DNA of 64,000 nucleotides from an uncultured Planctomycetia bacterium (GTDB lineage Bacteria; Omnitrophota; Gorgyraeia; S143-82), in the NCBI GenBank assembly GCA_964469495.1, contig CAYXYY010000011.1:30845-94844 (forward strand). The letters run 5' to 3'. The notes beneath the pieces were generated by a model. The model was not told where the DNA came from. It searched no databases and saw only the letters and a program-made list of their open reading frames with translations. The position numbers and the translations under genes were made by a program. Positions 15,252 through 60,290 of this stretch are shown in pieces (within the stretch, counting starts at the first letter, position 1; every line of letters starts with the position of its first letter).

Positions 15252-15373
15252 TTTTCAGACTCTATAATCATCCTGTTTTTGACATAGCAATAGAACAAGA
15301 ATAGATCCCCACCTCTTTCTCTTTTGAGGCCGAACCATGTCTGTTCCGTTTCCCAAAGGGCATGCGATCCCTA

Positions 15374-35113: not shown

Positions 35114-35557
35114 TTATATACTTGACCAAGTTGTGCCGCAACTAGAGCCAGTATAATCTGTGCTTTCTATTGTTCCGCCTTGAGTTACCCTATAACACTT
35201 GGTACCCAAATTGCTGTTTTGTGGTGTTGCCCGAACCGTATAAGTTGTAGTTGTAGGAGTCCCAACGATGCTGATATTATATCCCGATTTTAAAATGCTG
35301 GCAGTAGTTACATTATACCTGCTTGGAAGGTATCCATTAGCGTGTAGTGTGGAGAAAAAGTTCGTTGTTGGATACTGGTCATTTGCAATGAAGTATCCTT
35401 CAGCGGCCGTTCCGATTGTCCTGATCTCTGCGAGTGCTGCCTGCTGGTTTGCTGTCCTTCTGTTTCCAAGCAAGGAAGGCAGGGATATGCCAACCAAAAC
35501 AGCTATGATCGCAACGACGATCATCATTTCAATAAGTGTAAAACCTTTGTTTTTCAT
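35114..35557 (-). CDS. gspG: Major pseudopilin GspG-type (type II secretion / T4P-like pilin)
   Basis: MKNKG|FTLIEMMIVVAIIAVL and ...ALAEIRTIGTAAEGYFIANDQYPTT match the GspG hallmark (...LDNGRYPTTEQGL...). Confidence 0.8.
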   Translation of the reverse strand: MKNKGFTLIEMMIVVAIIAVLVGISLPSLLGNRRTANQQAALAEIRTIGTAAEGYFIANDQYPTTNFFSTLHANGYLPSRYNVTTASILKSGYNISIVGTPTTTTYTVRATPQNSNLGTKCYRVTQGGTIESTDYTGSSCGTTWSSI

Positions 35558-36082
35558 CTTAACCCCCTTTGTCGTCTGTCCTTAACTTGCCCCTTTTGGC
35601 TATAAGTTAGAATAAAACCATGCTTCCCAAGGGCCCTCCTTTTTAGTATCCTCTTCCTCACCTCCTTTCTTGCCAAGTGGCAATAAAAAAACCTGTCCGG
35701 CAGCCAAAACGCCAAACAGGTTTTCTATAATAGCCGGCAACTGGCTGCCCAGTTCTTGTCCCCCCTCAGGAACAAGCCTTGGGGCCCTATAGCTTTGCGC
35801 CCCCGCCTTTCGGCGGGTTTGCCCTTTTCGGTTAGAAAAGCCATAATTTCAAAGAGCACCTTTCTTCCTGCATACATAACTATATCTTATCCCCCTGTTT
35901 TGTCAACTTTTTATTTTTGCCCCCAAACCAAAATGCATAACCATTTGTCAAAAACCCATTTATAAAGTATAGCACATGTATGGATAAAGGCAAGTTTATT
36001 TGTCTGTTGATTTTAGCGGCCATGTATGATACTTTATCCCAAGTATTTATTTGCAAATCCGTTTAAATAGGAGGTTTTTACG

Positions 36083-37290: not shown

Positions 37291-38070
37291 TCAGTTTTCT
37301 ATTGCTTTTTGGGGAAATATATTAATCGTATGGAAGATCCGGACAAAGGCCTGTCCGGATCTTTTTTTAATTTTTCCTTCAGCGCATACGTCTTGGCCTT
37401 TTAAACTGCGTATATAAGATGCCTTTTCGAATGCAATGTTGGCAGGCACTTGAATATAATTATCAATATCCCATAGCAATACATATCCTATATCAGAAAA
37501 CGCAATGTTTTCTATTTTTCCGCAGATTATTTTTACTTTACCTGTGTATTTTAACATCTGTTTTGGGGTAATGATGTTATTTTTATCTGACCATATGCCT
37601 TTTTTGCTCTTTACTGCCTGACAATGCGCTTTAAAAAGCCTTTCTGCATATTTGCCATTGGGCTGCATAAAAAACAGGTATGCAAGGCCATTTCTTAAGA
37701 GTTCTTCGTTTAGCATCTTGTCGTTAATAAAACAGTATGCAAGAATCCTATTGTATTTATCCTGCTTCTGCAGGTCTTGTTCTATTCTTAGGATTCCTGT
37801 CCTGCAGAAATTTTGTGTAAAATTTTTCGCTTCCAGAGAGTATGGTTCATCGACTTCTGTCCATTCAACGCCGTTAAATCTCCTGGTTTCAGGCGTGTCA
37901 ATACCAATCAATCGGACTCTTTTGCTTGAATAAAGCTCAAGTGTATCGCCGTCGATAACCCTCTTTATTGCTAATCCATTTTTATATCTTGCCGTGTAAT
38001 GGACGAAGGTTAACAGGCATATAAATATCGAAAAATATAGGATGTATTGTTTAATCTGTTTCTTTTTCAT
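37291..38070 (-). CDS. Membrane-anchored thermonuclease (staphylococcal nuclease / SNase-like) with a C-terminal extension
   Basis: An N-terminal TM is followed by the SNc core VIDGDTLELYSSKRVRLIGIDTPE... The protein is about 259 aa. Confidence 0.8.
   Translation of the reverse strand: MKKKQIKQYILYFSIFICLLTFVHYTARYKNGLAIKRVIDGDTLELYSSKRVRLIGIDTPETRRFNGVEWTEVDEPYSLEAKNFTQNFCRTGILRIEQDLQKQDKYNRILAYCFINDKMLNEELLRNGLAYLFFMQPNGKYAERLFKAHCQAVKSKKGIWSDKNNIITPKQMLKYTGKVKIICGKIENIAFSDIGYVLLWDIDNYIQVPANIAFEKASYIRSLKGQDVCAEGKIKKRSGQAFVRIFHTINIFPQKAIEN
37336..37368 (+). terminator. Textbook rho-independent terminator for pfkA: GATCCGGACA-aaggcc-TGTCCGGATC followed by TTTTTTT. It lies inside the 3' end of the convergent nuclease ORF.
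   Basis: A perfect 10-bp stem and a 7-T run lie about 50 nt after the pfkA stop. Confidence 0.7.
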
Positions 38071-38431
38071 TTGACGTTTGTTTTTTGTCTTGGAAAGTAT
38101 TTTCCGTGTTATCTATATCCTGTGGTTTTTGGGTCTGTGGCTCTTGAGCCTGTGGCTCTTGAGACGGGGGATATAGTATCCTTATTTCCGTCCCGCATAC
38201 CTTGATTATAAGTTGTCCGGCTTCTATCTTTTTAATTTTAATCCCTGATACAGTGCTGTTTTCAACGGGGTTTATATTGTCTATAGCCGGCCAGTGTTTT
38301 GTAAGGTCTATTTCAATGGATTTAGTTTGTTTTTGCATAGGCCTGAACGCATCACGGGACATATCAGATGCAGCGGCCGGCATTGCGGCATATGATATGC
38401 AAAGCAAAGATACGGCTAATAATTTTTTCAT
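38051..38431 (-). CDS. Small secreted or lipo- protein with a C-terminal QEPQ low-complexity tail, possibly PilP-like
   Basis: It has a signal peptide (MKKLLAVSLLCISYAAMPAAAS) and repeats QEPQAQEPQTQKPQ. It lies downstream of PilN/PilO-like genes. Confidence 0.35.
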   Translation of the reverse strand: MKKLLAVSLLCISYAAMPAAASDMSRDAFRPMQKQTKSIEIDLTKHWPAIDNINPVENSTVSGIKIKKIEAGQLIIKVCGTEIRILYPPSQEPQAQEPQTQKPQDIDNTENTFQDKKQTSNEKETD

Positions 38432-39036
38432 AGTGTTTCAATCTGTCCCTTTTCTTTTTTATATTTCAATATAACCGTCATATCTATTTCAACGAGATCG
38501 TTTTGGTTTTTCTCTGACCAGACTATTTGCATGCGGTCCAATGTGTATATTGTGCTTTTATTAAGCGCATTAAAGAAGGTTTTAAGTTTTGTATACTCTA
38601 TATATGCCTTAATCCTGACAGGAACTAGCAGAAGTGTTATTTCCCCTGCTTGTTTCTTGTTTTTGATTTGGCCTATTTTCAGGGTCACATTATTTATTTG
38701 CGCATCATTTAAAAGGGTTAATATCTTCTCAAAGACGTGGTTTGGCGCATTTAATTGGGAAATAGATAAAAACCTATTGATTTCTTCTTGTTTTTTTAGA
38801 TACATGGATAATTCTTGTCTGATTTTCGCGCTAAGGATATCGCTTTTTTGTTTAGATGTGTTATAGCTTCTTATAATATCCCTTGCGCGTTTCAGCTTAA
38901 ATATTGCCGGGCCGATATAGATAGCATTGAAGGCCAAAAATACAATGAGAGCCATATTATGCAGACTGCGGCACAATCTTCTTGCGCTGTTTTTGCCGAT
39001 AAAATATATAAGATCATCAAGATAATAATGTATCAT
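38428..39036 (-). CDS. PilO/GspM-like bitopic membrane protein (TM, coiled coil, then C-terminal domain)
   Basis: The architecture and the C-terminal pattern ...VTLKIGQIKNKKQAGEITLLLVPVRIKAYIEYTKLKTFFNALNKS resemble PilO. No recognisable catalytic motif is present. Confidence 0.35.
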   Translation of the reverse strand: MIHYYLDDLIYFIGKNSARRLCRSLHNMALIVFLAFNAIYIGPAIFKLKRARDIIRSYNTSKQKSDILSAKIRQELSMYLKKQEEINRFLSISQLNAPNHVFEKILTLLNDAQINNVTLKIGQIKNKKQAGEITLLLVPVRIKAYIEYTKLKTFFNALNKSTIYTLDRMQIVWSEKNQNDLVEIDMTVILKYKKEKGQIETL

Positions 39037-39626
39037 AGTGTTATACCTATATGTTGTTTTGGTGTAAAAACAATATGATATGAGATTGTATAGCCCTCTT
39101 CTTTACTGTTCATTTCCTTTAAAATAACATCTGAAAAATAAGACATTATACGGCTTTGTTTGATAGAACGCAGAAATTCATTTATCTGTTTTAATGTATT
39201 ATAATCCCCTTTTTCCATTTGTATGTGCAGGTGCATAATATAGGTGTTGTTTTCCTTTGCCCACAATATCTTTTGTATCCATGCATTTTCAGGCAATGCC
39301 TTTGAAAGCTCGGCCCATATCACAGACCATACATTGGAGAATTTGTGTTTGTCAATGATAGCATAATATTTATTAATATATTTTTCTCTTATATTAATCT
39401 GTTGTTCCATATAGCGCAGAAATTCCAGCCTGCTGGTAAAAACCCTGTTTAGAGAAACGAATCTCTGGATCTTCTGAGAAGGAATGTATATATATGTGTA
39501 GGAGAGTGTAGCTATGAGCAGATAGATGGAAAGGAAAGACAGTAAACTAACAAATCGTTTCCATATATCTTTTTTGTATATGGAGAATAAAGCAAAATTT
39601 GTTTTATGAAAGACTGTAAGCTGCAC
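39033..39626 (-). CDS. PilN/GspL-like bitopic membrane protein
   Basis: A short cytoplasmic N-terminus, a single TM (VSLLSFLSIYLLIATLSYTYIYI) and a ~150-aa periplasmic domain are present. It overlaps the downstream PilO-like gene by 4 nt. Confidence 0.3.
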   Translation of the reverse strand: MQLTVFHKTNFALFSIYKKDIWKRFVSLLSFLSIYLLIATLSYTYIYIPSQKIQRFVSLNRVFTSRLEFLRYMEQQINIREKYINKYYAIIDKHKFSNVWSVIWAELSKALPENAWIQKILWAKENNTYIMHLHIQMEKGDYNTLKQINEFLRSIKQSRIMSYFSDVILKEMNSKEEGYTISYHIVFTPKQHIGITL

Positions 39627-39662
39627 CTGTCCTCCTGATTTCCAACGCCCCTTGTTTATCTA

Positions 39663-40388
39663 TTATACCACAAAATTGCAAAGTTTCATTACACCTTCTA
39701 TTTCTATGCAGATTTCATCTCCTTTGTGTAATTGCCCTATTCCCGGAGGAGTTCCTGTGGAAATAATGTCCCCTTTATTTAGAGTCATTATGCGTGATAT
39801 AAAAGAAACCAATTCTTCAATGGAAAAGATCATATCAGAACTTGAACCTTCTTGAACTAATTTGCCGTTTAGATGCGCTTTGACTATTAATTCTCTATTT
39901 CCTGTGTAAGGGGCAATAAACGGGCCTATCGGACAAAACGTATCAAATGATTTTGCCCTTGTCCATTGGCCGTCTTTCTTCTGCAGGTCCCGGGCAGTGA
40001 TGTCGTTTAAACAAGTAATGCCCCAGATAACTTTATGAGCCTCTTTGGGTTCAATATCCTTGCAATGGCGGCCTATTACAACAGCGATCTCGGCTTCGTA
40101 ATCAACTCTATTGCTTTGGTGGGGAAGTTGGATGTTGTCTTTATGTCCGATCAGGCTGCTAATTGGTTTTAAAAATATCACAGGCTCGTTTGGCGCTTCC
40201 ATCTCGAGTTCATTTGCATGGCTTAAGTAATTTAGCCCTGCCAATATGATCTTTGTCGGCTGGCATGGAGGCAGTAGGTTTAGCCGATCTATCGAGCCGT
40301 GTTTATCCCCGTTGTAAGAACAAAACAACCCGTCGTCAGAAACTAGTCCCTCTATAATTGCCTTGTCTTTCAGTATTCGGCAGTGCAT
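39663..40388 (-). CDS. Fumarylacetoacetate hydrolase (FAH) family protein (2-keto-4-pentenoate hydratase / YcgM-like)
   Basis: The segment ...NYLSHANELEMEAPNEPVIFLKP...DYEAEIAVVIG... has the FAH-fold metal-binding pattern. It is about 241 aa. Confidence 0.8.
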   Translation of the reverse strand: MHCRILKDKAIIEGLVSDDGLFCSYNGDKHGSIDRLNLLPPCQPTKIILAGLNYLSHANELEMEAPNEPVIFLKPISSLIGHKDNIQLPHQSNRVDYEAEIAVVIGRHCKDIEPKEAHKVIWGITCLNDITARDLQKKDGQWTRAKSFDTFCPIGPFIAPYTGNRELIVKAHLNGKLVQEGSSSDMIFSIEELVSFISRIMTLNKGDIISTGTPPGIGQLHKGDEICIEIEGVMKLCNFVV

Positions 40389-40397
40389 TGATAATGA

Positions 40398-41045
40398 TTA
40401 AAACTTAAACGACAGACTGATGCCGATGACGTTTGTGTCTTTCCAGTAGTCTGGTTTTTTGTCCCTTTGCCACAGGTAATATGCCTTTGCGTATAGATTG
40501 TCGTTTATTTTGTTTTTAATACCAATATATAGTCTGTTTCTGTTTAGTTTTTCCTCTTCTGTATCTGTAAAGACCTCATCTGCAATAAATGGTTTGAATA
40601 TGCCTATCTGCGGGAGATTTATTGTAAGCTTATCGCGGAATCTGTAAAAGTCGTTGTTATCTTTGTGGCGAAATTCCGCCTGAACTTTATTAGACATATC
40701 AAACCCCTTAAAAAGGAATTTATACGTGGCATTTGCATAATATCTATGTTCGTATTGCCATCCCGATGATTTCTTCTCTGTAATATACCTAAAGTGAAAT
40801 CCGACTTTCCATCTATCGTCTATCTTATGAGAGATCCCGAGGTCAGAATGATGCCTATAATGTTGTTGTGCGTCATCTCCAAAACGCTCTTCATTTGTAA
40901 GTTTCATTGACCAGCTATCGTTGATTTTTCCTGATATGGATTGCGAAATCCAAAACTGGAAATCTCCATCGTCGTAGGCATACAAGACATTGGAAAAGAA
41001 AGCAACGTAGATCAATGATATGAATAATAGAATTGATTTTTTCAT
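40398..41045 (-). CDS. Small outer-membrane beta-barrel protein (DUF2490-like)
   Basis: It has a signal peptide and alternating aromatic residues, and ends ...ISLSFKF with a terminal Phe. Confidence 0.5.
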   Translation of the reverse strand: MKKSILLFISLIYVAFFSNVLYAYDDGDFQFWISQSISGKINDSWSMKLTNEERFGDDAQQHYRHHSDLGISHKIDDRWKVGFHFRYITEKKSSGWQYEHRYYANATYKFLFKGFDMSNKVQAEFRHKDNNDFYRFRDKLTINLPQIGIFKPFIADEVFTDTEEEKLNRNRLYIGIKNKINDNLYAKAYYLWQRDKKPDYWKDTNVIGISLSFKF

Positions 41046-41259
41046 ATTCCCCTCCTTTTTTATAAAGTTGATAAAGCGATTAACACCATATCTTATATTA
41101 TATTAACCTTTTCGTCAAGTCCCATAGAGTTATAAAATACCATATTGTTTGGACCATTTTCACTATGGTAGCAAAGTGATTTTTATCCGATACATATTTT
41201 ATGGTATAATTAAACCTAGATTTGGCATATTTATGTAAATTGTAAAAGGAGAACAAGAT

Positions 41260-41322
41260 ATGGACAATTTGCCAATAGGCGTTCAAGATTTTGCCAAACT
41301 AATAAAGGAGAATAGGTATTGA
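41260..41322 (+). pseudogene. Remnant of an AAA-ATPase (PF09820-like, 'predicted AAA-ATPase' N-terminal) gene. Only the first 20 codons (MDNLPIGVQDFAKLIKENRY) remain before a stop, with more decayed sequence downstream.
   Basis: A strong SD (AAAGGAGAA) precedes an ATG. The peptide matches the conserved N-terminus of the AAA-ATPase/PD-(D/E)XK family (..LPIGIQ.FEKLRE.NY.YVDKT). The surrounding 415-bp region is otherwise non-coding. Confidence 0.45.
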
Positions 41323-41461
41323 GAGAAATGCCAATACGGAGGCAGGGAGATAACGCTTGTGGAAATAATATTTGATGACGATGAGAGGAATGTTTCAAAG
41401 ATGGAGTGGGACAATGTGTAGAAGGCCTGATTTTTGAAATTATTGATATGCTGAAAAGATT

Positions 41462-43752: not shown

Positions 43753-43794
43753 AAAAGGGCAGATCTCGACTGCAAAAGGGCAGATCTCGACTGC
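43753..43794 (+). repeat. Exact tandem duplication of a 21-bp unit (AAAAGGGCAGATCTCGACTGC x2). The second copy completes a terminator hairpin.
   Basis: Read directly: copy 1 is at 43753-43773 and copy 2 at 43774-43794. Confidence 0.7.
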
Positions 43795-50748: not shown

Positions 50749-51051
50749 ATGATGCGGTTAATAGGCGGCGCAAGATTGGATATGATGAATTTCACGTGGC
50801 CTTTTGCCCAGTTATATGTTGAAAAAGGCCTGTTAATTTTGACTGTTAATTTCTTGTTTTGGAGAAAAGAGTATTCTTTCCTTAAGGGAGACAATATCTT
50901 AATAGAACCATTTTATTCCTTACCAATAATTGGCCGCGGAATCAAGATACATCACCAAATTAAGGGTTATCCTCATGAGGTAATTTTTTGGGTTTTTGAT
51001 GATCCGGAAAAAGTCGCGGCCAAGATCAAGGAAATAATTCGCTCCGATTAA
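50749..51051 (+). CDS. Hypothetical 100-aa protein
   Basis: This is an ORF only, with no recognisable motif. Confidence 0.3.
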   Translation: MMRLIGGARLDMMNFTWPFAQLYVEKGLLILTVNFLFWRKEYSFLKGDNILIEPFYSLPIIGRGIKIHHQIKGYPHEVIFWVFDDPEKVAAKIKEIIRSD

Positions 51052-51091
51052 TAAATGTCCTAAAAAACTAAAGATTTGCATCTAATTTGCG

Positions 51092-51152
51092 ATATGCTTA
51101 ATATGAGTGTATAACATTGCCTTGCCTATAATGGTGCAGGGGTCTGTTTTGA
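51092..51152 (+). repeat. Copy 1 of a 61/62-bp direct repeat (ATATGCTTAATATGAGTGTATAACATTGCCTTGCCTATAATGGTGCAGGGGTCTGTTTTGA) containing a consensus TATAAT
   Basis: It is identical to 57986-58047 except for one extra G in copy 2. Both copies are in the same orientation. Confidence 0.9.
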
Positions 51153-51187
51153 TGTAATTATGTTCGCGCCTGATTCTTGATCACATA

Positions 51188-51218
51188 TTGACAAAATGTA
51201 CCAAATATTGTACATTTT
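51188..51218 (+). promoter_or_regulatory. Phd/RelE promoter-operator: TTGACA (51188-51193) overlapping a perfect 9-bp palindrome AAAATGTAC-N8-GTACATTTT (51193-51218)
   Basis: The inverted repeat was read directly. It lies immediately upstream of the SD and ATG of the antitoxin gene, typical of antitoxin autoregulation sites. Confidence 0.55.
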
Positions 51219-51232
51219 ATTTGGAGGTGAAA

Positions 51233-51487
51233 ATGATGGATTATATAATGCCGATCTCAGAAGTAAGGAGTAAACTGTCTGAAATAGTTAAGAAAATATC
51301 CCGTATGAGAAAACACTTGATTATAACTAAAAATGGAAAACCTGAGGCAGTTTTACTCTCTCCGGAAGAATTGGAAACATTGGAAATCAAAGCAGATCAG
51401 GACCTGCTTCGGTCTATATTGCGGGCACAAGAGGACATTCAAAAAGGGCGACTTTATACTCACGAAGATATATTTAAAGATGTATAG
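51233..51487 (+). CDS. Type II antitoxin, Phd/YefM family
   Basis: MMDYIMPISEVRSKLSEIVKKI...HLIITKNGKPEAVLLSPEELETLE is the Phd/YefM pattern. An SD (GGAGGTG) is present. The stop overlaps the toxin start by 8 nt. Confidence 0.8.
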   Translation: MMDYIMPISEVRSKLSEIVKKISRMRKHLIITKNGKPEAVLLSPEELETLEIKADQDLLRSILRAQEDIQKGRLYTHEDIFKDV

Positions 51488-51764
51488 CATTCTCTATACA
51501 AAAGAAGCGAAGACCGCCATAGAAAAGCTGTCTATTAAAAAGAAGCGGCAAATCAAGGATGCTATTGAACGTATAGCAAGTGCCCCTAATATTGGCAAGC
51601 ATCTTACACATGAATTAAAAGGATTAATATCTTACCGTTCCGGTACCTATCGGATAATCTATCGTATAGATCATAAAAAAATTACCATTATAATATTGGC
51701 TATTGGCCATAGAAAAAATATTTATAAAGAAATACCCCGAAAATTTAATCGGAAGGACATCTGA
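51480..51764 (+). CDS. Type II toxin, RelE/ParE family
   Basis: MYSILYTKEAKTAIEKLS...GTYRIIYRIDHKKITIIILAIGHRKNIY is the RelE/ParE signature. It overlaps the antitoxin gene. Confidence 0.8.
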   Translation: MYSILYTKEAKTAIEKLSIKKKRQIKDAIERIASAPNIGKHLTHELKGLISYRSGTYRIIYRIDHKKITIIILAIGHRKNIYKEIPRKFNRKDI

Positions 51765-51862
51765 TAAGACAATGTATCTAACCTTTCCTTTTGCGCGACA
51801 AAAGGTCTGTCCAATCAATAAATGCTATGATGTTGTAGGATTTGTCCGTGAGAATACAAATC

Positions 51863-54800
51863 TTATTTTTTATTTTCAGGGGCCGTGTTGTTAGATACGT
51901 TTTCTTGAGAGATAATTGAATTATAGCTTTCAAGAAGAAGTCCTTGGGCCAATTTAAATTCAAGAATACTGATATTACAATCCGTAAGCGCAGAGTAATA
52001 AAGATAAGTGGATTTTCTCAAAGCGGATTCCGCATCCAGAACGTCATTAATTACTCCTTTGCCAACTTTGTATTTTAGTTTTTCAAGCCTTAACGTTTCT
52101 TCCGCCTCTTTTCGAGATGCCTCGGCAAGCCGCAATCTTTTCTTGGAAGAGGCAATATCCGCTAATGCTTTATTGACGTCTTTATAGATACTAAGTACGA
52201 TCTTTGACTCTTCCGCTTTTTGGGAATCATACTCTCCTTTTGCTTTTAAAATGTCTCCTTTTTTCATTCCGCTGTCAAAGATAAGGAAGCTGGCTTTTAC
52301 TCCGATCCAATATTCGCTTTGCCATCTATTGTCTCCGGGGAATTTAGAATCTCCGGAAGTTCCTGAGTATTCCCCCGCACCGGCAACAGCTCTAATTTCA
52401 GGGAAGTATGACCTTTTATATGATTTTAACCAAAAATAGGAAGATTTGAGCAAATGTCTAAAATTTTCCAAATCTTCTCTATATGCTAATGCTTTATTAA
52501 AAGCCTTTTGAATGGAAATTCCATCTAAATTTATATCAAATAAATTTAAAGTGTCATTTACATATAATTGACCTTGATATCCCATCTCCTCAGCCAAAAG
52601 CCCTAAAAGGTAAACTCTTTTACTCTCTAATTCTGCTATTTCATACTCGATTTCAGATAGGCGCACATTTATTTTTAACAAATCAATTTTAGCCGCTTTG
52701 CCTTTTTTAGAATACAACTCGGTTCTCCTCTGCAATTCTGAGATGCTTTTATGCAGTGTCTTTAAAGACTCCAGCAGTTTATCTAAAGAGATTATATTCA
52801 AGTATATATTTGAAACTGTAAAAACCACCACTTCTCTTCTTCTTTCCAAATTTTTTATAGATGATAGATATTTTTCTTTTGCTGATTTAAAGGCATAGAA
52901 GCTCTTCCCTAAGTCTGTAAGCAATAAAGATGCTTTCACTTGTCCTGAAATCAAGTTATTGTCAAACCTTTGATTATCTCCTGAAATGCCGGGTGCTACT
53001 GCATGTTTATTCTGGTAATTTGTATAAGTACAGTTTAGGCTTATTTGAGGGAGAAGGCCTGCTCTTATTTTGATATTTTCGCCTTTTGCTTTTTCTGTAT
53101 TGGCGGTTGATTTTTGAATATCAGGGCTGTTCTCAAGGGCATATTCAATAGCTGATTTTAAAGAAAATGTTTTTAGGCTAGTTGTTAAATCGTCGTTTAT
53201 TTTATTGTTTTCGTCTGCAAATAAATGTCCGCAACAAAACATAGAATATAGCCCCAGCGTTAATAGAATCACCGCAATTTTTGTTTTTTTAAATGAAAAT
53301 TTATTTTTTAAATCGTCGATGGAAGCATAAATAACAGGGATTATTATCATCGTTAGAAATGTTCCTAATATAAGGCCTGCTACTGCGACAATGCCTAACG
53401 GGCTTAAACGTTCTAATCCCACAGCCATTTCAAATACTAGGGGCGTAAGGCCTATAACAGTAGATGTGGCGGTCATAAGAATAGGCCTTGTCCTTATCTT
53501 GACTGATTGGACAATTGCATCCTCTTTGGATAAGCCATTTTTGCGGGCATGGATGATAAAATCTAAAAGTAAAATAGAATTATTCACAATTGTTCCCGAA
53601 AGAAGGATTATTCCCATAAGAGCAGGCATGCACATTGGTTTATCAAATATCAAAAGCCCCCATAGTGCCCCAATTGTTGCAAGAGGGATAGCCAGCATTA
53701 TAACTATGGGATGAGTAAAAGACTTATACATAGGCAAAATAACCACGTAAAGTAAAATTATCCCCAATATGAGCGCTTTTTTTAAACGATTTTTAGCATC
53801 CAACATATTCGCAGGGGTTCCGGACATCCTTATATTATAATCGCGCGGCAAAATCATACCTTTCTTTTTTAATTTTGTTCCGGCTGCCTTTGCGGCCTGA
53901 GCAATTGTATAGACATTGTTAACACCCGTTATATCAATTGTATTTTCTAAATCTTCGCGGGTTATAAACGGCTGAATATATGACTGCTTTATTTTGACCA
54001 GACTTCTTAGGGCGGCATCTCCATAGCGGGTAGGGATATATATGGAATCGAGTTTGGAAGGAAGATTTAAGTCTGCTTCTTTATACTCGATTCTTATAGG
54101 GATATCCAAAAAATCCTCCAGTCTCATAAAAGAGGCCAAAGCGCCTTTGGCAGCAAATTTGATATATTGGGAAACCTTTTCTGTATCTACTCCATAATAT
54201 TTGCAAAGAGAGGCATCGGGTTGAACCTCTATCTCAGGTTTGTCCATATACCAGCTTCTTCTTATGTCCACTAATCCTTTTGTCCCTTTTAGATTAGAAA
54301 GAATTTTATCTGCCATAACATTTAAGACTTTTGTGTTTTTGCCCATTAATATCAAGTCAAAAGGCGCTTTCGTCGTTGAAATAGGGGTTGCTCCGTACTC
54401 TACAACAGTAAACGACCTTATGCCTTCTATATTACGCAGTTTATTGCGCCATTCTTTCTCTATATCCCAGATAGTTTTTTTTCTTTTATCCCTTGTAACT
54501 AGATTAGCGGTTATAGATACTGTTTGAGTTGTTGTCCCGCCGCCCCCAAAACTTATTTCTCCGGGTTCAGAGCCAACGGTCGAAGATAAAGAAACAAATC
54601 CCGGTGTTTCCTTTATGAAGTTTTCAACCTTATTGAGAATGTTCTCTACTTTTTTTATGTTATAACTAGAGGGTATATCTAAAGTTATTTTTACAATTCC
54701 GGTATCCATAGGAGGCATAAGTTCGCCTACTAAAAGAGGGATAACCACTTTAATAGTAAAAACAAATGCAATAAAAACAAAAGAGAGGGTTTTGCCTTTA

Positions 54801-56392
54801 TGCCTCAATGCGATCTTTAAAATTGAGACATAAAAGTCAGATAATTTCTTTACCCAAATATCCATCCTGCTTACTAATTGCTCAACAAGGTTTTTCTTTC
54901 TCTCTTTTCTAGTCAAAACATAAGAGGAAATTAGCGGGACTATTGTCAGAGAGGCAATCAAAGACGCAAAAATAGTCGAACCTATCATAATAGACAACGG
55001 CCTTAGCACTTTTTGAGGATACCCGCCGACAAACATAACCGGTATTAAAACAATTACAGTGGTTAGTGTTCCGGCGATGTTCGCTAAAGCTACTTCGTTT
55101 GTTCCCAGCAAAGCTGCCTCATAAGGAGAAATAGTCTTATCCGTCTGAAAGCGGCGGTAGATATTCTCCAAGACAACAATAGATGCATCTACAACCATCC
55201 CCACAGCAATCATAAGCCCTGATAGGGTGACCATATTCATTGTATAATGGCTAAATTTTAAGACAATTAAGCTGAATAAAAAAGAGACGGGAATACTTAC
55301 AGAAATTATTGCGGCAGTCCTTTTATCAGCTAAGAACACAAATATAACCAAGATAGTCAAAATTATAGCTTGGATTAGAGAACCCCTCATGCCTTTAAGA
55401 TTAATATCTATTATGGGTTCTTGGTCATTGGTAATCTCAAACTTTATATCGGGATATTCTTTTTTAAATCTGGGCAGATATCTTTTAACTGCTTTTATAG
55501 TATCTAAAGTATGCCCATCTTCTGGCCTTAAAATATTAATAGCGATAGCCCTTTGGCCATTGCCGTGATAGAGGCTTCTTTGCTCTTTTATGCCCTGTGT
55601 TACATCGGCTACATCTTTAAGAAGGATATATCCCTGTTTCCTTTTTTTAAGGGGAAGATTTTTTATATGGTTTAAATTTTTAAATTCAGAAGTTGTACGT
55701 ATTAAAAATTCCTTTTCATCAGTATAAATATATCCGCCCGGAGCTGTTACATTTCTTCCTGCAACAGATGAGATTACGTCCATCAGAGTTAATCTATAAC
55801 CTTTGAGTTTATCTCTATCAATATGTATTTTAACTTCGGGCAAATATCCCCCAAAAACATCCACATCTCCAACTTCAGGAATTCTAAGGAGTTTATCTTT
55901 AATGTCATTTTCTGCTAAAAGCCGCACACTAGATAAAGTTTTTGAAGAGCCTTTTTTAGGCGAAAGAGCTAAAGTCATTGTTGCATGTGTTGCGTCAGTA
56001 ATTTTATAGATCTGAGGCGGCAGGATATCATGGGGGAGTTTTGTTTTTATTCTATCTAAAACGTTTGTTACATCTATGGCAGCTGTATCTATATTTTTAG
56101 AATAGTAGAACTCTGCCGTAACTGCCGAAACCTCATCTCTGGAAATTGATTTTACTTTTTTGATGCCCGAGATTGTATTTACTTCTTTTTCTATGATCTC
56201 TGTGATTTTATCCGATATATCTTTAGCTGAAGCGCCTGGTTCAATTGTTAGTATCAGCACTTGAGGAGGCGATGTGTTGGGAAACAAATCCACTGGAGTT
56301 TTAAAAAAGGCGATAATTCCTAAAACAAGGACTACAAGGCTGAAAGCCATTACAATATACGGATTTTTTAAAGAGATTTCAGTTAGGTTCAT
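51863..56392 (-). CDS. RND (HAE1/AcrB-like) efflux permease fused in frame, via an extra hydrophobic segment, to a TolC-like outer-membrane factor (OMF) domain. It is a single 1509-aa ORF.
   Basis: Residues 1 to about 1040 show the typical 12-TM RND layout with two large periplasmic loops. The RND part is followed by ...IDDLKNKFSFKKTKIAVILLTLGLYSMFCCGHLFADEN.., a 13th hydrophobic segment, and then SLKSAIEYALENSPDIQ..., the canonical TolC/OEP start. Two OEP repeats follow, up to ...LAQGLL. I translated the junction myself and found no stop codon. Confidence 0.85.
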   Translation of the reverse strand: MNLTEISLKNPYIVMAFSLVVLVLGIIAFFKTPVDLFPNTSPPQVLILTIEPGASAKDISDKITEIIEKEVNTISGIKKVKSISRDEVSAVTAEFYYSKNIDTAAIDVTNVLDRIKTKLPHDILPPQIYKITDATHATMTLALSPKKGSSKTLSSVRLLAENDIKDKLLRIPEVGDVDVFGGYLPEVKIHIDRDKLKGYRLTLMDVISSVAGRNVTAPGGYIYTDEKEFLIRTTSEFKNLNHIKNLPLKKRKQGYILLKDVADVTQGIKEQRSLYHGNGQRAIAINILRPEDGHTLDTIKAVKRYLPRFKKEYPDIKFEITNDQEPIIDINLKGMRGSLIQAIILTILVIFVFLADKRTAAIISVSIPVSFLFSLIVLKFSHYTMNMVTLSGLMIAVGMVVDASIVVLENIYRRFQTDKTISPYEAALLGTNEVALANIAGTLTTVIVLIPVMFVGGYPQKVLRPLSIMIGSTIFASLIASLTIVPLISSYVLTRKERKKNLVEQLVSRMDIWVKKLSDFYVSILKIALRHKGKTLSFVFIAFVFTIKVVIPLLVGELMPPMDTGIVKITLDIPSSYNIKKVENILNKVENFIKETPGFVSLSSTVGSEPGEISFGGGGTTTQTVSITANLVTRDKRKKTIWDIEKEWRNKLRNIEGIRSFTVVEYGATPISTTKAPFDLILMGKNTKVLNVMADKILSNLKGTKGLVDIRRSWYMDKPEIEVQPDASLCKYYGVDTEKVSQYIKFAAKGALASFMRLEDFLDIPIRIEYKEADLNLPSKLDSIYIPTRYGDAALRSLVKIKQSYIQPFITREDLENTIDITGVNNVYTIAQAAKAAGTKLKKKGMILPRDYNIRMSGTPANMLDAKNRLKKALILGIILLYVVILPMYKSFTHPIVIMLAIPLATIGALWGLLIFDKPMCMPALMGIILLSGTIVNNSILLLDFIIHARKNGLSKEDAIVQSVKIRTRPILMTATSTVIGLTPLVFEMAVGLERLSPLGIVAVAGLILGTFLTMIIIPVIYASIDDLKNKFSFKKTKIAVILLTLGLYSMFCCGHLFADENNKINDDLTTSLKTFSLKSAIEYALENSPDIQKSTANTEKAKGENIKIRAGLLPQISLNCTYTNYQNKHAVAPGISGDNQRFDNNLISGQVKASLLLTDLGKSFYAFKSAKEKYLSSIKNLERRREVVVFTVSNIYLNIISLDKLLESLKTLHKSISELQRRTELYSKKGKAAKIDLLKINVRLSEIEYEIAELESKRVYLLGLLAEEMGYQGQLYVNDTLNLFDINLDGISIQKAFNKALAYREDLENFRHLLKSSYFWLKSYKRSYFPEIRAVAGAGEYSGTSGDSKFPGDNRWQSEYWIGVKASFLIFDSGMKKGDILKAKGEYDSQKAEESKIVLSIYKDVNKALADIASSKKRLRLAEASRKEAEETLRLEKLKYKVGKGVINDVLDAESALRKSTYLYYSALTDCNISILEFKLAQGLLLESYNSIISQENVSNNTAPENKK

Positions 56393-57464
56393 TTTTATTC
56401 ATAACCTTAACAGGTTCTCCTTCTGTCAATTTAACCCAGGATAGATATGGGTTTTTTACTACAGCAACACCAGGAGACAAATTCTTGCATTCAACAAACA
56501 TATCGGACCTTATGCCTAAAATAACAGGGTATTTTTTTAGTTTGCCGTTTTGAACTATGAATATAAACGGCTTGAGCCCAGATTCATTTACTACTGCGCT
56601 TTTGGGAATAGCGACAACACCCTTTTTTTGTTCTGTCACAACCTTAACCGGCACAAACGCTCCGGTATAAAGTCCTTCCTTATTGTCCAGATATGCCTCA
56701 ACACGTAAAAGTTTACCCTCAGAAATAGTGGGAAAAACATTTGTTATCTTTGCCTTCGTAAAACTGTTTTTATCTTTATAGAGAATAGGCATATCTTTTT
56801 TTATAAACTGCACATCTTCCTGCGGTACATCAAAAACAAGTTTTAGCCGGCTTCTGTCTTCAATGATGAATAAAATCTTTCCTGGAGCCGCTAAATCCCC
56901 GGCATCCACAGTTCTTTTAGAAACAATACCATCATAAGGAGATTTTATTTCCGTGTAATTTAAATTTGCTTGCCAGAATTTAATGTTTTCTTTTGCATTT
57001 TCGAGTCTTGATTTTGCTTGAGCAAAAGCATTTTTTGTTCTATCCATTTCTTCTTCAGATATGGCGCCTTGCTTAAATAAATATTCGTCTCTGTTATTTT
57101 CCTTTTGCCAGTAATTAAAATTCTCTTCGGCTGCAGAGAGAACTTGTTTGGCTGAATTTAGTTTGGCTAAAATATCTCTATCGTCTAGTTTTGCCAATAA
57201 ATCCCCCTTTTTTACAATGGAGCCTTCGTCTACAAGTATTTTTTCAATAACCGCACTAACTCTGGTTGAAACTTTTGTTTCATTTATCGGAGCAATTTTT
57301 GCTAAATATCCCCTGAATTTTTCAATATCTTTTTTCTGGGAATAGAAAACTGAAACCAATACTGGTTTCTTGCCAAAGACAGGTGCGTGTGATAGCTCAA
57401 TTTTTTTCTTTAAAATAAAAAATGCGGCTAGAATTATCAATATGAGTATTACTAATTTTTTCAT
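56379..57464 (-). CDS. RND efflux membrane fusion protein (periplasmic adaptor, HlyD/AcrA family)
   Basis: It has an N-terminal TM/signal (MKKLVILILIILAAFFIL), coiled-coil hairpin, lipoyl and beta-barrel segments. It overlaps the RND gene by 14 nt. The start at 57464 forms an ATGA overlap with the padR stop. Confidence 0.8.
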   Translation of the reverse strand: MKKLVILILIILAAFFILKKKIELSHAPVFGKKPVLVSVFYSQKKDIEKFRGYLAKIAPINETKVSTRVSAVIEKILVDEGSIVKKGDLLAKLDDRDILAKLNSAKQVLSAAEENFNYWQKENNRDEYLFKQGAISEEEMDRTKNAFAQAKSRLENAKENIKFWQANLNYTEIKSPYDGIVSKRTVDAGDLAAPGKILFIIEDRSRLKLVFDVPQEDVQFIKKDMPILYKDKNSFTKAKITNVFPTISEGKLLRVEAYLDNKEGLYTGAFVPVKVVTEQKKGVVAIPKSAVVNESGLKPFIFIVQNGKLKKYPVILGIRSDMFVECKNLSPGVAVVKNPYLSWVKLTEGEPVKVMNKNEPN

Positions 57465-57850
57465 AATTTTTCTCTTTGATAAAAATCTAAAAAATTCTCT
57501 AATGCGTTTTTTCTCTCCTTGATTCTTTCGACCCATGCTTTAAGCAGTCTTCTGCCATGAGGAGTGATTTGATAGACCCTTTTTCTTCTTGAACCCTTTG
57601 TTTTCCATGAAGATTTTACAAGGAATTCTTTTTCCATCTTTCTCAATATCCGATACACTGATCCTATATCAATGTTTTTTTTATGAAAGCCAAGGAGTTT
57701 TAATTTATCGATCAATTCATAACCGTGAGACGGCTTCTTTGACAAAAACAAGAGTAGACCGGGCTGAATAAATCTTGAAACTCTACGCAGGGAAAAATTG
57801 CAGCCCTTTTCTTTTTCATCCAATTTTTCCCCTAATTCTTTTGATTTCAT
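57461..57850 (-). CDS. PadR-family transcriptional regulator, the first gene of the efflux operon
   Basis: ...PGLLLFLSKKPSHGYELIDKL...GSVYRILRKMEKEFLV...RKRVYQITPHGRRLL is the PadR wHTH signature. An SD (AGGAGA) precedes the internal ATG at 57850, which is preferred over the 57877 start. Confidence 0.75.
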   Translation of the reverse strand: MKSKELGEKLDEKEKGCNFSLRRVSRFIQPGLLLFLSKKPSHGYELIDKLKLLGFHKKNIDIGSVYRILRKMEKEFLVKSSWKTKGSRRKRVYQITPHGRRLLKAWVERIKERKNALENFLDFYQREKL

Positions 57851-57887
57851 ATCTTCTCCTATATAAGACAAAACCATATATGCTTAT

Positions 57888-57916
57888 ATCATATAATACA
57901 GCCATATTACTGTCAA
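57888..57916 (-). promoter_or_regulatory. Putative sigma70 promoter of the padR-MFP-RND/OMF operon: TTGACA (complement of 57911-57916), a 17-bp spacer, TATGAT (complement of 57888-57893)
   Basis: Hexamers from the reverse-complement reading. Confidence 0.4.
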
Positions 57917-57985
57917 GTATTTCTTAAAGATGAAATGGGAAACGGAACAGACATGGTTTTGCTGACTGTGAAAGAGGATTCCAAA

Positions 57986-58047
57986 ATATGCTTAATATGA
58001 GTGTATAACATTGCCTTGCCTATAATGGTGCAGGGGGTCTGTTTTGA
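57986..58047 (+). repeat. Copy 2 of the 61/62-bp direct repeat, about 65 nt upstream of the methylthiotransferase gene
   Basis: See copy 1. The only difference is GGGGG versus GGGG. Confidence 0.9.
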
Positions 58048-58111
58048 GGAAAGACTAGAACATTTAAAAAAACCCCTTTAAAGGCTTTATACTCTGCTAT
58101 AATATTTTCTT

Positions 58112-59212
58112 ATGCCTAAAATCTATATTAAAACTTTTGGCTGTCAGATGAACAAGCGGGATTCTGAGATCCTGGCAGGCGCTCTTATGCGCAAAGGCGC
58201 TGTTTTGGTGGATGACTGGCAGGATGCAGACGTTGTTTTGTTCAATACCTGCGCGGTGCGCAAGCATGCAGAAGACAGGGTGTTTAGTATTCTTGGGCTT
58301 ATTGCGAAAAAGACTCGCGATAGGGGAGAGAACAGAATCTTTGGCCTGCTTGGCTGTATGGCGCAGGAATGGAGGGAAAAGGCCTTTAGAAAAGCGCCGT
58401 ATCTGGATGTGGTCTGCGGCCCGAATGATTTGTTTTCATTGGTGGAGAATTTTGATTCTATTTTAGAGAAAAAACAAAAACTGTGTTTTGTTGATTCAGA
58501 GAAACGAGTTGATGAGTTTTACTCTAATGGGGCATTTTTCTCGACGAGTGATGAACATGCCTTTGTGATTATTATGGAGGGATGTAATAACTTTTGCACT
58601 TATTGCATTGTCCCTTATGTAAGGGGGCGAGAGCGCAGCAGGCCTTCAAAGGATATATTAAAGGAGATAAAGATATTGATAGATCAAGGGAAAAAGAGTT
58701 TTACCCTTTTAGGGCAGAACGTTAATTCCTATGCAGGGGATATGTCTTTTATTGAGCTTTTGGATAAGGCCTCTAATATTGACGGTGTTCAGGAACTCTC
58801 TTTTGTTACGTCTCATCCTAAAGATGCATCTCTTGAATTATTTGATCTGATGGCAAAGAAGGAAAATATAAAAAAATATTTACACCTGCCTTTTCAGTCC
58901 GGCTCAAATAGGATATTGAAATTAATGAACAGGGGGTATACTATAGAAAGATACAAAGAACTAGTTTTGGCCTATAAGGAAAAGGTAAGAAGCGGTTATT
59001 TAAGCACAGACGTTATCGTTGGGTTTCCATCAGAGACAGAGGAAGATTTTGAACAGACTAAACAGGTTTTAGAGGAGATAGATTTCGATTGCGCGTATAT
59101 TTTTAAATATTCGCCAAGGCCCTATAGCAAGGCATATGAGATGAAAGACGATGTCCCTATTAGAGAAAAGGAGCGCAGGCATAAAGTTTTGCTGGATATG
59201 GTAACTAGTTAG
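58112..59212 (+). CDS. Radical-SAM methylthiotransferase of the MiaB/RimO/MtaB family that lacks the C-terminal TRAM domain
   Basis: It has the MTTase N-domain (IKTFGCQMNKRDSE), the radical-SAM CxxxCxxC (CNNFCTYCIVP), and ends ...KERRHKVLLDMVTS. That point is about where the TRAM domain normally begins. Confidence 0.75.
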   Translation: MPKIYIKTFGCQMNKRDSEILAGALMRKGAVLVDDWQDADVVLFNTCAVRKHAEDRVFSILGLIAKKTRDRGENRIFGLLGCMAQEWREKAFRKAPYLDVVCGPNDLFSLVENFDSILEKKQKLCFVDSEKRVDEFYSNGAFFSTSDEHAFVIIMEGCNNFCTYCIVPYVRGRERSRPSKDILKEIKILIDQGKKSFTLLGQNVNSYAGDMSFIELLDKASNIDGVQELSFVTSHPKDASLELFDLMAKKENIKKYLHLPFQSGSNRILKLMNRGYTIERYKELVLAYKEKVRSGYLSTDVIVGFPSETEEDFEQTKQVLEEIDFDCAYIFKYSPRPYSKAYEMKDDVPIREKERRHKVLLDMVTS

Positions 59213-59300
59213 AATTTTTGTTAGTAAATTATGTGTTTTGGAATATAATATTGCGATAGATGTTAAATGTTTTTGTTTTCACAATCCAAAGGAGGGTGCT

Positions 59301-60290
59301 ATGGACGGAAATATTCAGGCTATAGTTGAGATTGTGGAGAAACAATCCGCTTTGGTAAAACAGATTGAGCAGGAATTGTCTAAAGTTATTGTCGGCCAGC
59401 AATATCTTATAAATAGACTGATTCTGGGGCTTATCTCAGGCGGGCATATTTTGATAGAAGGCGTGCCGGGGCTGGCTAAAACCTTGGCTGTCCGCACTCT
59501 TTCAGATGCCGTTGATTGTGATTTTAGCCGTATACAGTTTACGCCAGACCTTTTGCCTGCAGATGTCATAGGCACGCTTATATATAATCCAAAGGATTCG
59601 GATTTTATTACCAAAAAAGGGCCGGTGTTTACTAATCTGCTTCTGGCAGATGAGATAAACAGGGCGCCAGCTAAGGTGCAGAGCGCTCTGCTTGAGGCCA
59701 TGCAGGAAAAGCAGGTTACCATTGGAGATGAGACGTATAACTTGCCTGATTTGTTTATGGTTATTGCAACGCAAAATCCAATAGAACAGGAAGGCACCTA
59801 TCCATTGCCGGAGGCGCAAGTGGATCGTTTTATGCTTAAATTGAAGGTTGGTTATCCGAATAAGGCCGAAGAGATTCGCATCATAGAAAGAATGGCCGCT
59901 ATTGAACAGCCAAAGGCCTCTGTTGTTTTAAATCCGGGTCAAATATTGGGGCTTAAGAAAACGGTTTTCAGTATATATATGGATGAGAAGATAAAACATT
60001 ATATTGTTTCTATTATTGATGCAACGCGTCATCCTGATGCCTATAAATTAGAGGAAATCTCTCCTTTGATTGGATATGGCGCGTCTCCTCGCGGGACGTT
60101 AAACTTGGCTATAGGAGCAAAGGCCTATGCTTTTTTAAAACAACGCGCTTTTGTTTTGCCCGACGATGTCAAGGCTATTGCAAAGGACGTGTTAAGGCAT
60201 AGGCTGCTTTTGACCTATGAGGCCGAGGCAGAGGGAATGGACAGCGATGCTGTTATAGACAAACTCTTGGCGGAATTGCCTGTGCCGTAA
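59301..60290 (+). CDS. MoxR-family AAA+ ATPase
   Basis: ...IVGQQYLINRLILGLISGGHILIEGVPGLAKT... and ...LLADEINRAPAKVQSALLEAMQE are the MoxR signatures. An SD (AAGGAGGG) precedes the ATG at 59301. Confidence 0.85.
   Translation: MDGNIQAIVEIVEKQSALVKQIEQELSKVIVGQQYLINRLILGLISGGHILIEGVPGLAKTLAVRTLSDAVDCDFSRIQFTPDLLPADVIGTLIYNPKDSDFITKKGPVFTNLLLADEINRAPAKVQSALLEAMQEKQVTIGDETYNLPDLFMVIATQNPIEQEGTYPLPEAQVDRFMLKLKVGYPNKAEEIRIIERMAAIEQPKASVVLNPGQILGLKKTVFSIYMDEKIKHYIVSIIDATRHPDAYKLEEISPLIGYGASPRGTLNLAIGAKAYAFLKQRAFVLPDDVKAIAKDVLRHRLLLTYEAEAEGMDSDAVIDKLLAELPVP

Follow-up and report, generated by a model that had tools for sequence, protein, structure and literature searches.

Direct repeats around a toxin-antitoxin and efflux block in an Omnitrophota genome as probable remains of an IS481-like insertion sequence

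Background

How did a compact block of foreign-looking genes come to lie between two near-identical direct repeats in the genome of an uncultured Omnitrophota bacterium? The block is found in a 64-kb stretch of a metagenome-assembled contig (assembly GCA_964469495.1, contig CAYXYY010000011.1, positions 30,845 to 94,844). This stretch is referred to below as the window, and all coordinates are those of the window. The block carries a toxin-antitoxin (TA) module and an efflux operon consisting of padR, a gene for a membrane-fusion protein (MFP), and a gene in which a resistance-nodulation-division (RND) permease is fused to an outer-membrane factor (OMF). The repeat, R, is found before the TA module (R1) and again before a MiaB-like methylthiotransferase gene (R2). 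A preliminary description of the locus proposed that the segment is an acquired islet and that R1 and R2 are either an attL/attR pair left by site-specific integration or a duplicated promoter cassette. The acquisition is supported by our analysis. The two proposals on the repeats are not; R appears to be a fragment of an insertion sequence (IS) of an IS481-like family, and R1 and R2 are probably the decayed remains of an IS-bounded acquisition of the block.

The direct repeat and the block that it brackets

The bracketing direct repeat exists as described, with the coordinates, the sequence, and the one extra G given in the preliminary description (Table 1). R1 and R2 are identical over 51 nt, which are followed by GGGG in R1 and GGGGG in R2 and then by 10 identical nt (TCTGTTTTGA). 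The two copies are in direct orientation with a start-to-start distance of 6,894 nt, and the end of R2 is 64 nt from the MiaB start codon. Identity between R1 and R2 ends sharply at both edges, and their flanks show no extended mutual similarity. When three or fewer mismatches are allowed, there are exactly two matches to R in the window and none in 100 dinucleotide shuffles. In an exhaustive list of the exact repeats of the window R is the longest, followed by a 23-mer (see below) and a 21-nt tandem, and all others are 16 nt or shorter. The tandem is a perfect duplication (AAAAGGGCAGATCTCGACTGC x2, 43753-43794) located upstream of dnaE (43878) at a distance of about 85 nt. For the central 24-mer of R, exact searches of 185,579 species-representative GTDB genomes, of the JGI metagenomes, and of IMG/VR, none of which include the window's own genome, gave no match. 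Two simple identities of R were dropped from reading the sequence: coding sequence, since the small open reading frames (ORFs) across R are not the same in R1 and R2, and a MITE (miniature inverted-repeat transposable element) by itself, since R has no terminal inverted repeats.

The DNA enclosed by the repeats is foreign by composition, and at gene resolution the repeats are its boundaries. The GC content of the block interior is 35.7%, compared with 41.9% for the rest of the window. The GC content at third codon positions (GC3) of all five enclosed genes (0.287-0.341) lies under the minimum (0.348) of the 51 other ORFs of the window (mean 0.428, sd 0.035), while the genes immediately outside, hyp100 on the left and the MiaB-like gene on the right, are average (Table 1). 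In 3-kb windows over the block the tetranucleotide distance is 0.033-0.043, about twice the window median of 0.020 (median absolute deviation 0.002). In GC, in GC3, and in tetranucleotide distance the block thus behaves as a horizontally acquired islet. The preliminary description was right that the enclosed DNA is AT-richer, although its rough hand counts of 50-57% GC for dnaE and dnaJ do not stand (41.6% and 45.2%, respectively). In relatives with long flanks, the GC content of the efflux operon is equal to or above that of its surroundings. Therefore, low GC is not inherent to this operon. The closest operon homologues (78-80% amino-acid identity) sit in DNA of 34-39% GC, and a lower-GC Omnitrophota lineage is a plausible donor of the block.

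A second low-GC stretch is found at 37291-41045 (minus strand). Its genes have 32-42% GC, its 3-kb windows have about 37% GC, and its tetranucleotide distance is 0.026-0.029. It includes a staphylococcal-nuclease homologue and several ORFs without a family, and it may be another acquired patch.

Comparison with relatives gives a direction to the change. In related loci (L008, L009, L025, L032, L033, and L034) padR-MFP-RND/OMF is followed by FmdE-like and TauE-like genes, and in L033 metal-related genes (cation efflux, ArsP) precede the operon. None of these operon loci has a TA module, a MiaB neighbor, or flanking repeats. In the window the TA module occupies the place of the FmdE/TauE genes, and the arrangement found there therefore appears to be derived. 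Since the relatives share only the operon, the idea of the islet as a conserved unit was dropped. Six loci of MiaB relatives (67-76% identity) have unrelated neighbors and are not syntenic with the window. The 6.9-kb segment has no blastn match among plasmids or phages, and a plasmid or phage origin of the block was dropped on this ground.

Relationship of the repeat to an IS481-like family

The element from which R seems to derive was found through the 23-mer mentioned above. Short-word BLAST of the junction regions places AACCATGTCTGTTCCGTTTCCCA at 57936-57958 (minus strand) and at 15333-15355. This 23-mer has nine matches in the JGI metagenomes, all of them in one metagenome (Ga0256914; L035-L043), where a repeated element has it as its outer tip. 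The copy in L040 is about 1.6 kb long and encodes a 365-aa transposase. With Pfam this protein gives only HTH_28/HTH_32/LZ_Tnp_IS481, which are N-terminal domains of IS481 type, and with the NCBIfam model NF033577 (IS481 family) it is matched over positions 3-282 of 284 (E = 7.9e-36) with 124 bits, which falls short of the curated cutoff (224 bits). Internal deletions have shortened other copies to 544 nt and about 295 nt. The ends of the family are imperfect terminal inverted repeats, GGAAnnGGnAnnGACATGGTTCGGC. Members of the IS481 family have terminal inverted repeats and a target duplication of 4-15 bp; a 15-bp target duplication (AGAAAACTAATAGCA) is found at the copy in L044, and none is seen around the MITE copies from JGI. 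Homologues of the transposase number more than 1,100; many of them come from short contigs, and several carry an Omnitrophota label. The family to which the source element of R belongs is thus a genuine IS family, and it is IS481-like. The element in L044, whose transposase is 63% identical, was considered as the source of R and dropped, as it turned out to be a third subfamily.

Two right-end relics of this family exist in the window in addition to R, and they are 94-100% identical to the JGI copies (Table 1). One precedes the -35 box of a tRNA-Glu promoter by 18 nt. The other is an inverted tip, 27 nt to the left of R2, which points at the padR promoter and lies 19 nt from its -35 box. An intergenic stretch at 41172-41407, upstream of an NfeD gene, also resembles an IS-bearing JGI contig (L043, 509-627 and 2047-2152), with identities of 85% across 106 nt and 72% across 123 nt, and may represent a gene fragment or a further shared repeat.

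R itself aligns about 80-145 nt inside the right tip of the IS, in the same orientation (profile positions ~122-180). When a 297-nt MITE copy (L039) was compared with the window by blastn, a match was found at 57979-58047 (E = 1e-4). An nhmmer profile built from seven IS right ends hits 57948-58047 with E = 1.1e-4 and 51083-51169 with E = 0.031. R2 alone scores 8.4 bits, a score that none of 1000 dinucleotide shuffles reaches (maximum 1.4), and its Smith-Waterman score is 21, compared with 10.4 +/- 1.7 for shuffles. On these alignments R appears to be a diverged piece from the subterminal part of an IS481-like right end. Since R is about 70% identical to the available IS copies and the tip relics are 94-100% identical, R would come from another subfamily than the tips.

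The similarity to the IS also continues beyond R, on the inner sides of the block only. To the left of R2 a 27-nt segment (a in Table 1) belongs to the nhmmer alignment that spans 57948-58047. This segment meets the inverted IS tip in a head-to-head arrangement; its true score is reached by 6 of 300 flank shuffles (p~0.02). To the right of R1 a 17-nt segment (b) contains a block that is conserved in three IS subfamilies. The outer flanks, X (left of R1) and Y (right of R2), show no IS homology in either the profile or the flank-shuffle tests. If read around a circle, a-R-b would form one contiguous IS fragment. R1 has the right end of the element toward the TA promoter, and both R1 and R2 face a promoter in the orientation of the family. 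No right inverted repeat tip follows R1 or R2, and no relic of an IS left end was found in the window.

That orientation is a general feature of the family. The spacing between the IS tip and the promoter was examined at the nine JGI sites and at the two tip relics of the window (n = 11). At all 11 sites a -35-like hexamer lies 18-19 nt beyond the right tip of the IS and has a -10 hexamer at 16-18 nt spacing, always in one orientation. With an automatic search for the best promoter, the top site (at least 9/12) lies at an offset of 18-19 in 8 of the 11, and in the remaining three a -35-like hexamer is seen at that offset by inspection. Of 3000 random positions, 15 have a promoter at this offset by the same search. 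Four of the IS targets are tRNA promoters.

Origin of the block

On balance, we consider it probable that R1 and R2 are the decayed traces left by an IS-bounded acquisition of the TA and efflux block. Both ends of the block carry fragments, of about 78 and 90 nt, that are homologous to one IS481-like family and in direct orientation. R1 and R2 would be remnants of two same-orientation copies of the element, one of which was perhaps already a relic at the time of the event. The IS family appears to home to positions about 18-19 nt upstream of sigma-70-type -35 boxes, with its right end facing the promoter, and one copy could have been present in this way upstream of the MiaB promoter. The 6.8 kb of cargo (Phd/ParE and padR-MFP-RND/OMF) would have come from a lower-GC Omnitrophota lineage on a circular or donor molecule with one IS copy, which joined the copy upstream of the MiaB promoter. 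The joining may have been carried out by the transposase (cointegrate or translocatable-unit type) or by a RecA crossover, and either route would produce IS-cargo-IS in direct orientation. In an alternative history, two full IS copies would have flanked the cargo and both would have been trimmed by deletions later.

Later deletions would have taken the transposase genes and the IS ends, so that about 78 nt of the IS (R and b) would remain on the left and about 90 nt (a and R) on the right. R would then be the overlap of two differently truncated IS fragments. A direct repeat with sharp edges is what such a history would leave, because R is the only part that the two fragments have in common. 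IS homology on the inner sides only, in a and b, fits either a single IS-IS crossover or trimmed flanking IS copies. R1 and R2 could still permit RecA-dependent loss of the block, a loss that the TA module would penalize.

This kind of acquisition has a known counterpart. In IS26-flanked resistance regions, a circle with one IS and its cargo joins beside an existing IS without an integrase (PMC4196232). As in such translocatable units, the cargo here seems to lie between two directly oriented fragments of one IS, and the direct repeats of the IS26-type units are likewise able to excise the cargo again (PMC4196232). Unlike in the IS26-type units, what is found here are internal fragments of about 80-90 nt with no transposase gene, no terminal inverted repeats, and no target duplication, and the source IS is IS481-like and not of the IS6/IS26 family (PMC4196232). 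In the 64-kb window neither tblastn nor Pfam detected any transposase similarity.

Several points weigh against an IS-bounded acquisition. None of the IS copies available is an intact member of the R subfamily; their identity to R is only about 70%. The contiguity of a, R, and b in an IS is something that we infer, and the shuffle test of b by itself is statistically weak (p~0.16). Four deletions are needed, by which two IS copies of 1.6 kb would be reduced to overlapping fragments of less than 100 nt, with the part in common remaining identical. Between the outer flanks of the whole block there is no target-site duplication above chance, although none would be expected after deletion of the IS ends. 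The integrated arrangement itself comes from a metagenome-assembled contig and rests on the assembler having resolved a 51-nt repeat. We infer, moreover, that the IS copies were once complete, in what order the events took place, and by which mechanism the molecules were joined.

The main rival, which we regard as unlikely, is that promoter-homing IS copies entered separately before the TA and MiaB promoters and decayed there, and had no role in the acquisition; the repeats would then bracket the block only because its edges carry promoters. The habit of the family, which lies upstream of promoters in a single orientation at every site examined, makes such insertions easy to envisage, and every promoter region of this locus bears some IS relic. 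Independent insertions also predict the same features as the IS-bounded model, namely that a and b are IS-like and X and Y are not. Their cost is that a separate, unexplained mechanism is then required for the foreign block. They also leave unexplained why both copies belong to the same diverged subfamily, why they are in direct orientation, and why they match the compositional boundaries. A further point against them is that, of the four IS relics in 64 kb, three are concentrated at this 7-kb block.

More doubtful still is a site-specific origin, in which R is the attL/attR core of an islet without an integrase and the recombinase is encoded elsewhere. Islets of this kind, the cis-mobilizable elements (CIMEs), are flanked by att sites, lack an integrase of their own, and are known from the accretion of ICEs (integrative and conjugative elements) as well as integrative and mobilizable elements in Streptococcus. 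In CIMEs the repeats are att cores, usually at the end of a conserved gene, which a tyrosine integrase from a related ICE recognizes. The present islet resembles CIMEs in being small, in lying between direct repeats without recombination genes, and in its adaptive cargo. Perfect repeats with sharp edges around compositionally foreign, TA-bearing DNA are what would be expected, and the recombinase gene could sit outside the 64-kb window. The preliminary description had seen no integrase or transposase inside the block, and this is borne out for the whole window: when all 55 ORFs retained (at least 90 aa) were scanned with Pfam, no integrase, recombinase, or transposase was found. In addition, R1 and R2 are intergenic, and neither coincides with a tRNA, tmRNA, other Rfam family, or conserved gene end. 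Unlike the repeats of CIMEs, R is derived from an IS and lies in an intergenic promoter region with no integrase in evidence. The absence of its core 24-mer from the representative genomes, the JGI metagenomes, and IMG/VR argues that it is not a conserved attachment site. A dif/Xer site, as used by integrative mobile elements exploiting Xer (IMEX), was dropped as well: on either side of the islet the GC skew has positive values, and it dips only where genes are on the minus strand, so that there is no terminus signal or switch at the site, although no formal search for a dif motif was made.

An assembly ambiguity, for which we see little probability, would mean that the 6.9-kb block is a separate circle or a population variant sharing R, which the assembler threaded into the contig. 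An exact repeat of 51 nt in a metagenome-assembled contig is unresolvable at small k-mer length (k), the composition of the block is unlike that of its flanks, and an independent Logan assembly of SRR8542060 breaks inside R2 (contig L001 starts at 58038). Against this, the one-G difference is linked to different right flanks, so that the two copies were not merged into one node; reads of at least 100 nt bridge a 51-nt repeat; and the block has no replication gene. The Logan contig itself (1.4 kb) corresponds to 58038-59411, has an identical MiaB gene, and starts right after the G run of R2. The break is shorter than what a repeat break at k = 31 predicts, which hints at heterogeneity of the G run or low coverage.

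The remaining possibility is that R owes its duplication to a role in driving or regulating the genes downstream of it. Putative mobile promoters have been described as near-identical short sequences upstream of non-homologous genes in one genome (PMC3488235), and R1 and R2, which lie before two unrelated genes in the same orientation and contain the TATAAT hexamer reported in the preliminary description, look similar. Unlike the putative mobile promoters (PMC3488235), R is by its look not a complete promoter, its downstream genes have their own sites, and it originates from an IS fragment. The TATAAT of R has no -35 match of at least 4/6 at 16-18 nt and was not called by a consensus promoter scan. 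The scan finds promoter-like sites outside R for the TA module (10/12), for padR (11/12), and, as candidates, for MiaB. Since each flanking gene has a better site outside R, R is not a consensus promoter. The TATAAT also looks incidental because the corresponding IS segment reads CTGTAATTGT in other subfamilies. Rfam gives no match to R at E values as high as 5, its predicted fold is not better than that of shuffles (z -1.5 to -1.6), and a known RNA was therefore dropped. R begins with ATATG..ATATG and was considered as a PadR operator; this was also dropped, as the same part of R aligns with IS sequence. A mobile promoter or regulatory cassette is on these grounds very improbable.

If the IS-bounded acquisition is correct, the islet is one more case of an IS-associated acquisition of a TA-stabilized efflux operon, in the poorly known Omnitrophota. 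It also illustrates that decayed IS fragments can be mistaken for attachment sites or promoter cassettes.

Apparent promoter homing of the IS family

The promoter-homing IS481-like family is perhaps a more interesting by-product than the islet itself. To our knowledge, promoter homing has not been described for IS481-type elements.

Among other mobile elements, TnGBS, ISLre2, and ISKra4 insert 15-17 bp upstream of sigma-A -35 boxes with the right inverted repeat next to the promoter (PMC3942029). In the IS481-like family the right end similarly sits at a fixed distance before the -35 box in a single orientation, whereas TnGBS, ISLre2, and ISKra4 use Mutator-like (p-MULT) DDE transposases (PMC3942029). 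It may be speculated, although we think it rather unlikely, that the block is a present or recent promoter-homing compound transposon, that this Omnitrophota family independently evolved insertion of the TnGBS/ISLre2 type, and that IS pairs or relics carry cargo between promoter-proximal sites. If true, new genes would land in intergenic DNA by active promoters and leave host genes undisrupted. If confirmed, a second, unrelated transposase lineage with homing to promoter-upstream positions would be known, and the IS family would be a practical promoter marker in an uncultured phylum.

Genes and other features of the window

As shown in Table 1, the gene content given in the preliminary description (a TA module and a padR-MFP-RND/OMF operon, with a MiaB-like gene next to them) was recovered by Pfam. 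The phd and parE genes form a type II TA module. They are adjacent small genes with the domains of the respective families and their own palindrome-bearing promoter-like site, and they overlap by 8 nt. The efflux operon on the minus strand is convergent with the TA genes on the plus strand. For padR, the second Met was taken as the start since it is preceded by GGAGAAG and the N-termini of relatives agree. The likely start of the MFP gene (57464) overlaps the padR stop (ATGA), and the alignment with relatives sets in at residue 47 of the long ORF. On the right side of the block, a MoxR gene comes after the MiaB-like gene. Exact protein look-ups of hyp100 and of the RND-OMF fusion gave no match.

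Table 1. Features of the block, its repeats, and its IS relics, in window coordinates
Feature	Position	Strand	Remarks
R1 (repeat copy 1)	51092..51152	+	61 nt; putative IS481-like subterminal fragment
R2 (repeat copy 2)	57986..58047	+	62 nt; one G more in the G run
a, left flank of R2	57959..57985	+	modest IS similarity, profile positions ~80-121
b, 17 nt right of R1	51153..51169	+	appears to continue the IS homology, TTTTGA..TTCGCGC block; absent after R2
Right inverted repeat (IRR) tip of the IS481-like family	57936..57962	-	23 nt exact, 25/27; nhmmer E = 2.3e-4
Second relic of the IS family, 51 nt of right end	15305..15355	+	94-98% identical to JGI copies; nhmmer E = 1.5e-14
hyp100, left flanking ORF (100 aa), native-like	50749..51051	+	no family match; GC3 0.416
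TA module promoter-like site	51188..51216	+	TTGACA-17-TACATT; operator-like palindrome AATGTAC..GTACATT; outside R
Phd/YefM-family antitoxin, 84 aa	51233..51487	+	Pfam PF02604 E = 6.7e-14; GC3 0.341
ParE/RelE-family toxin, 94 aa	51480..51764	+	Pfam PF15781/PF05016 E~1e-12; GC3 0.316
RND permease-outer-membrane factor fusion, 1509 aa	51863..56392	-	Pfam ACR_tran E = 1e-207, OEP E = 1e-44; GC3 0.319
Membrane-fusion (periplasmic adaptor) protein, MFP	56379..57464	-	Pfam HlyD_D23/HlyD_3; GC3 0.287
PadR-family regulator, 129 aa from second Met	57461..57850	-	Pfam PadR E = 5.7e-17; GC3 0.323
padR operon promoter-like site	57888..57916	-	TTGACA-17-TATGAT, 11/12; outside R
MiaB-like methylthiotransferase, native flank	58112..59212	+	Pfam UPF0004, Radical_SAM; GC3 0.431

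The padR promoters of the window (57878-57935, minus strand) and of relatives (L009 150-230, L010 50-115, and L011 8460-8520) have ATATG/CATATATG motifs, the latter palindromic, around the -35 and -10 boxes, and these motifs are candidate PadR operators. The fused RND-OMF architecture occurs widely, and homologues were found in Omnitrophota, Deferrisoma, Desulfuromonas, and Riflebacteria; its name in JGI is 'AcrB/TolC'. The MiaB-like protein (366 aa) has UPF0004 and radical-SAM domains and no match to the TRAM domain; for its Omnitrophota homologues the same two domains are listed. Elsewhere in the window, a c-di-GMP-I-GGC riboswitch is found at 35732-35832 (minus strand) with 67 bits, above the gathering score. 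It is located upstream of a minus-strand cluster that is led by a type IV pilin-like gene (35114-35557; N_methyl, ComP_DUS).

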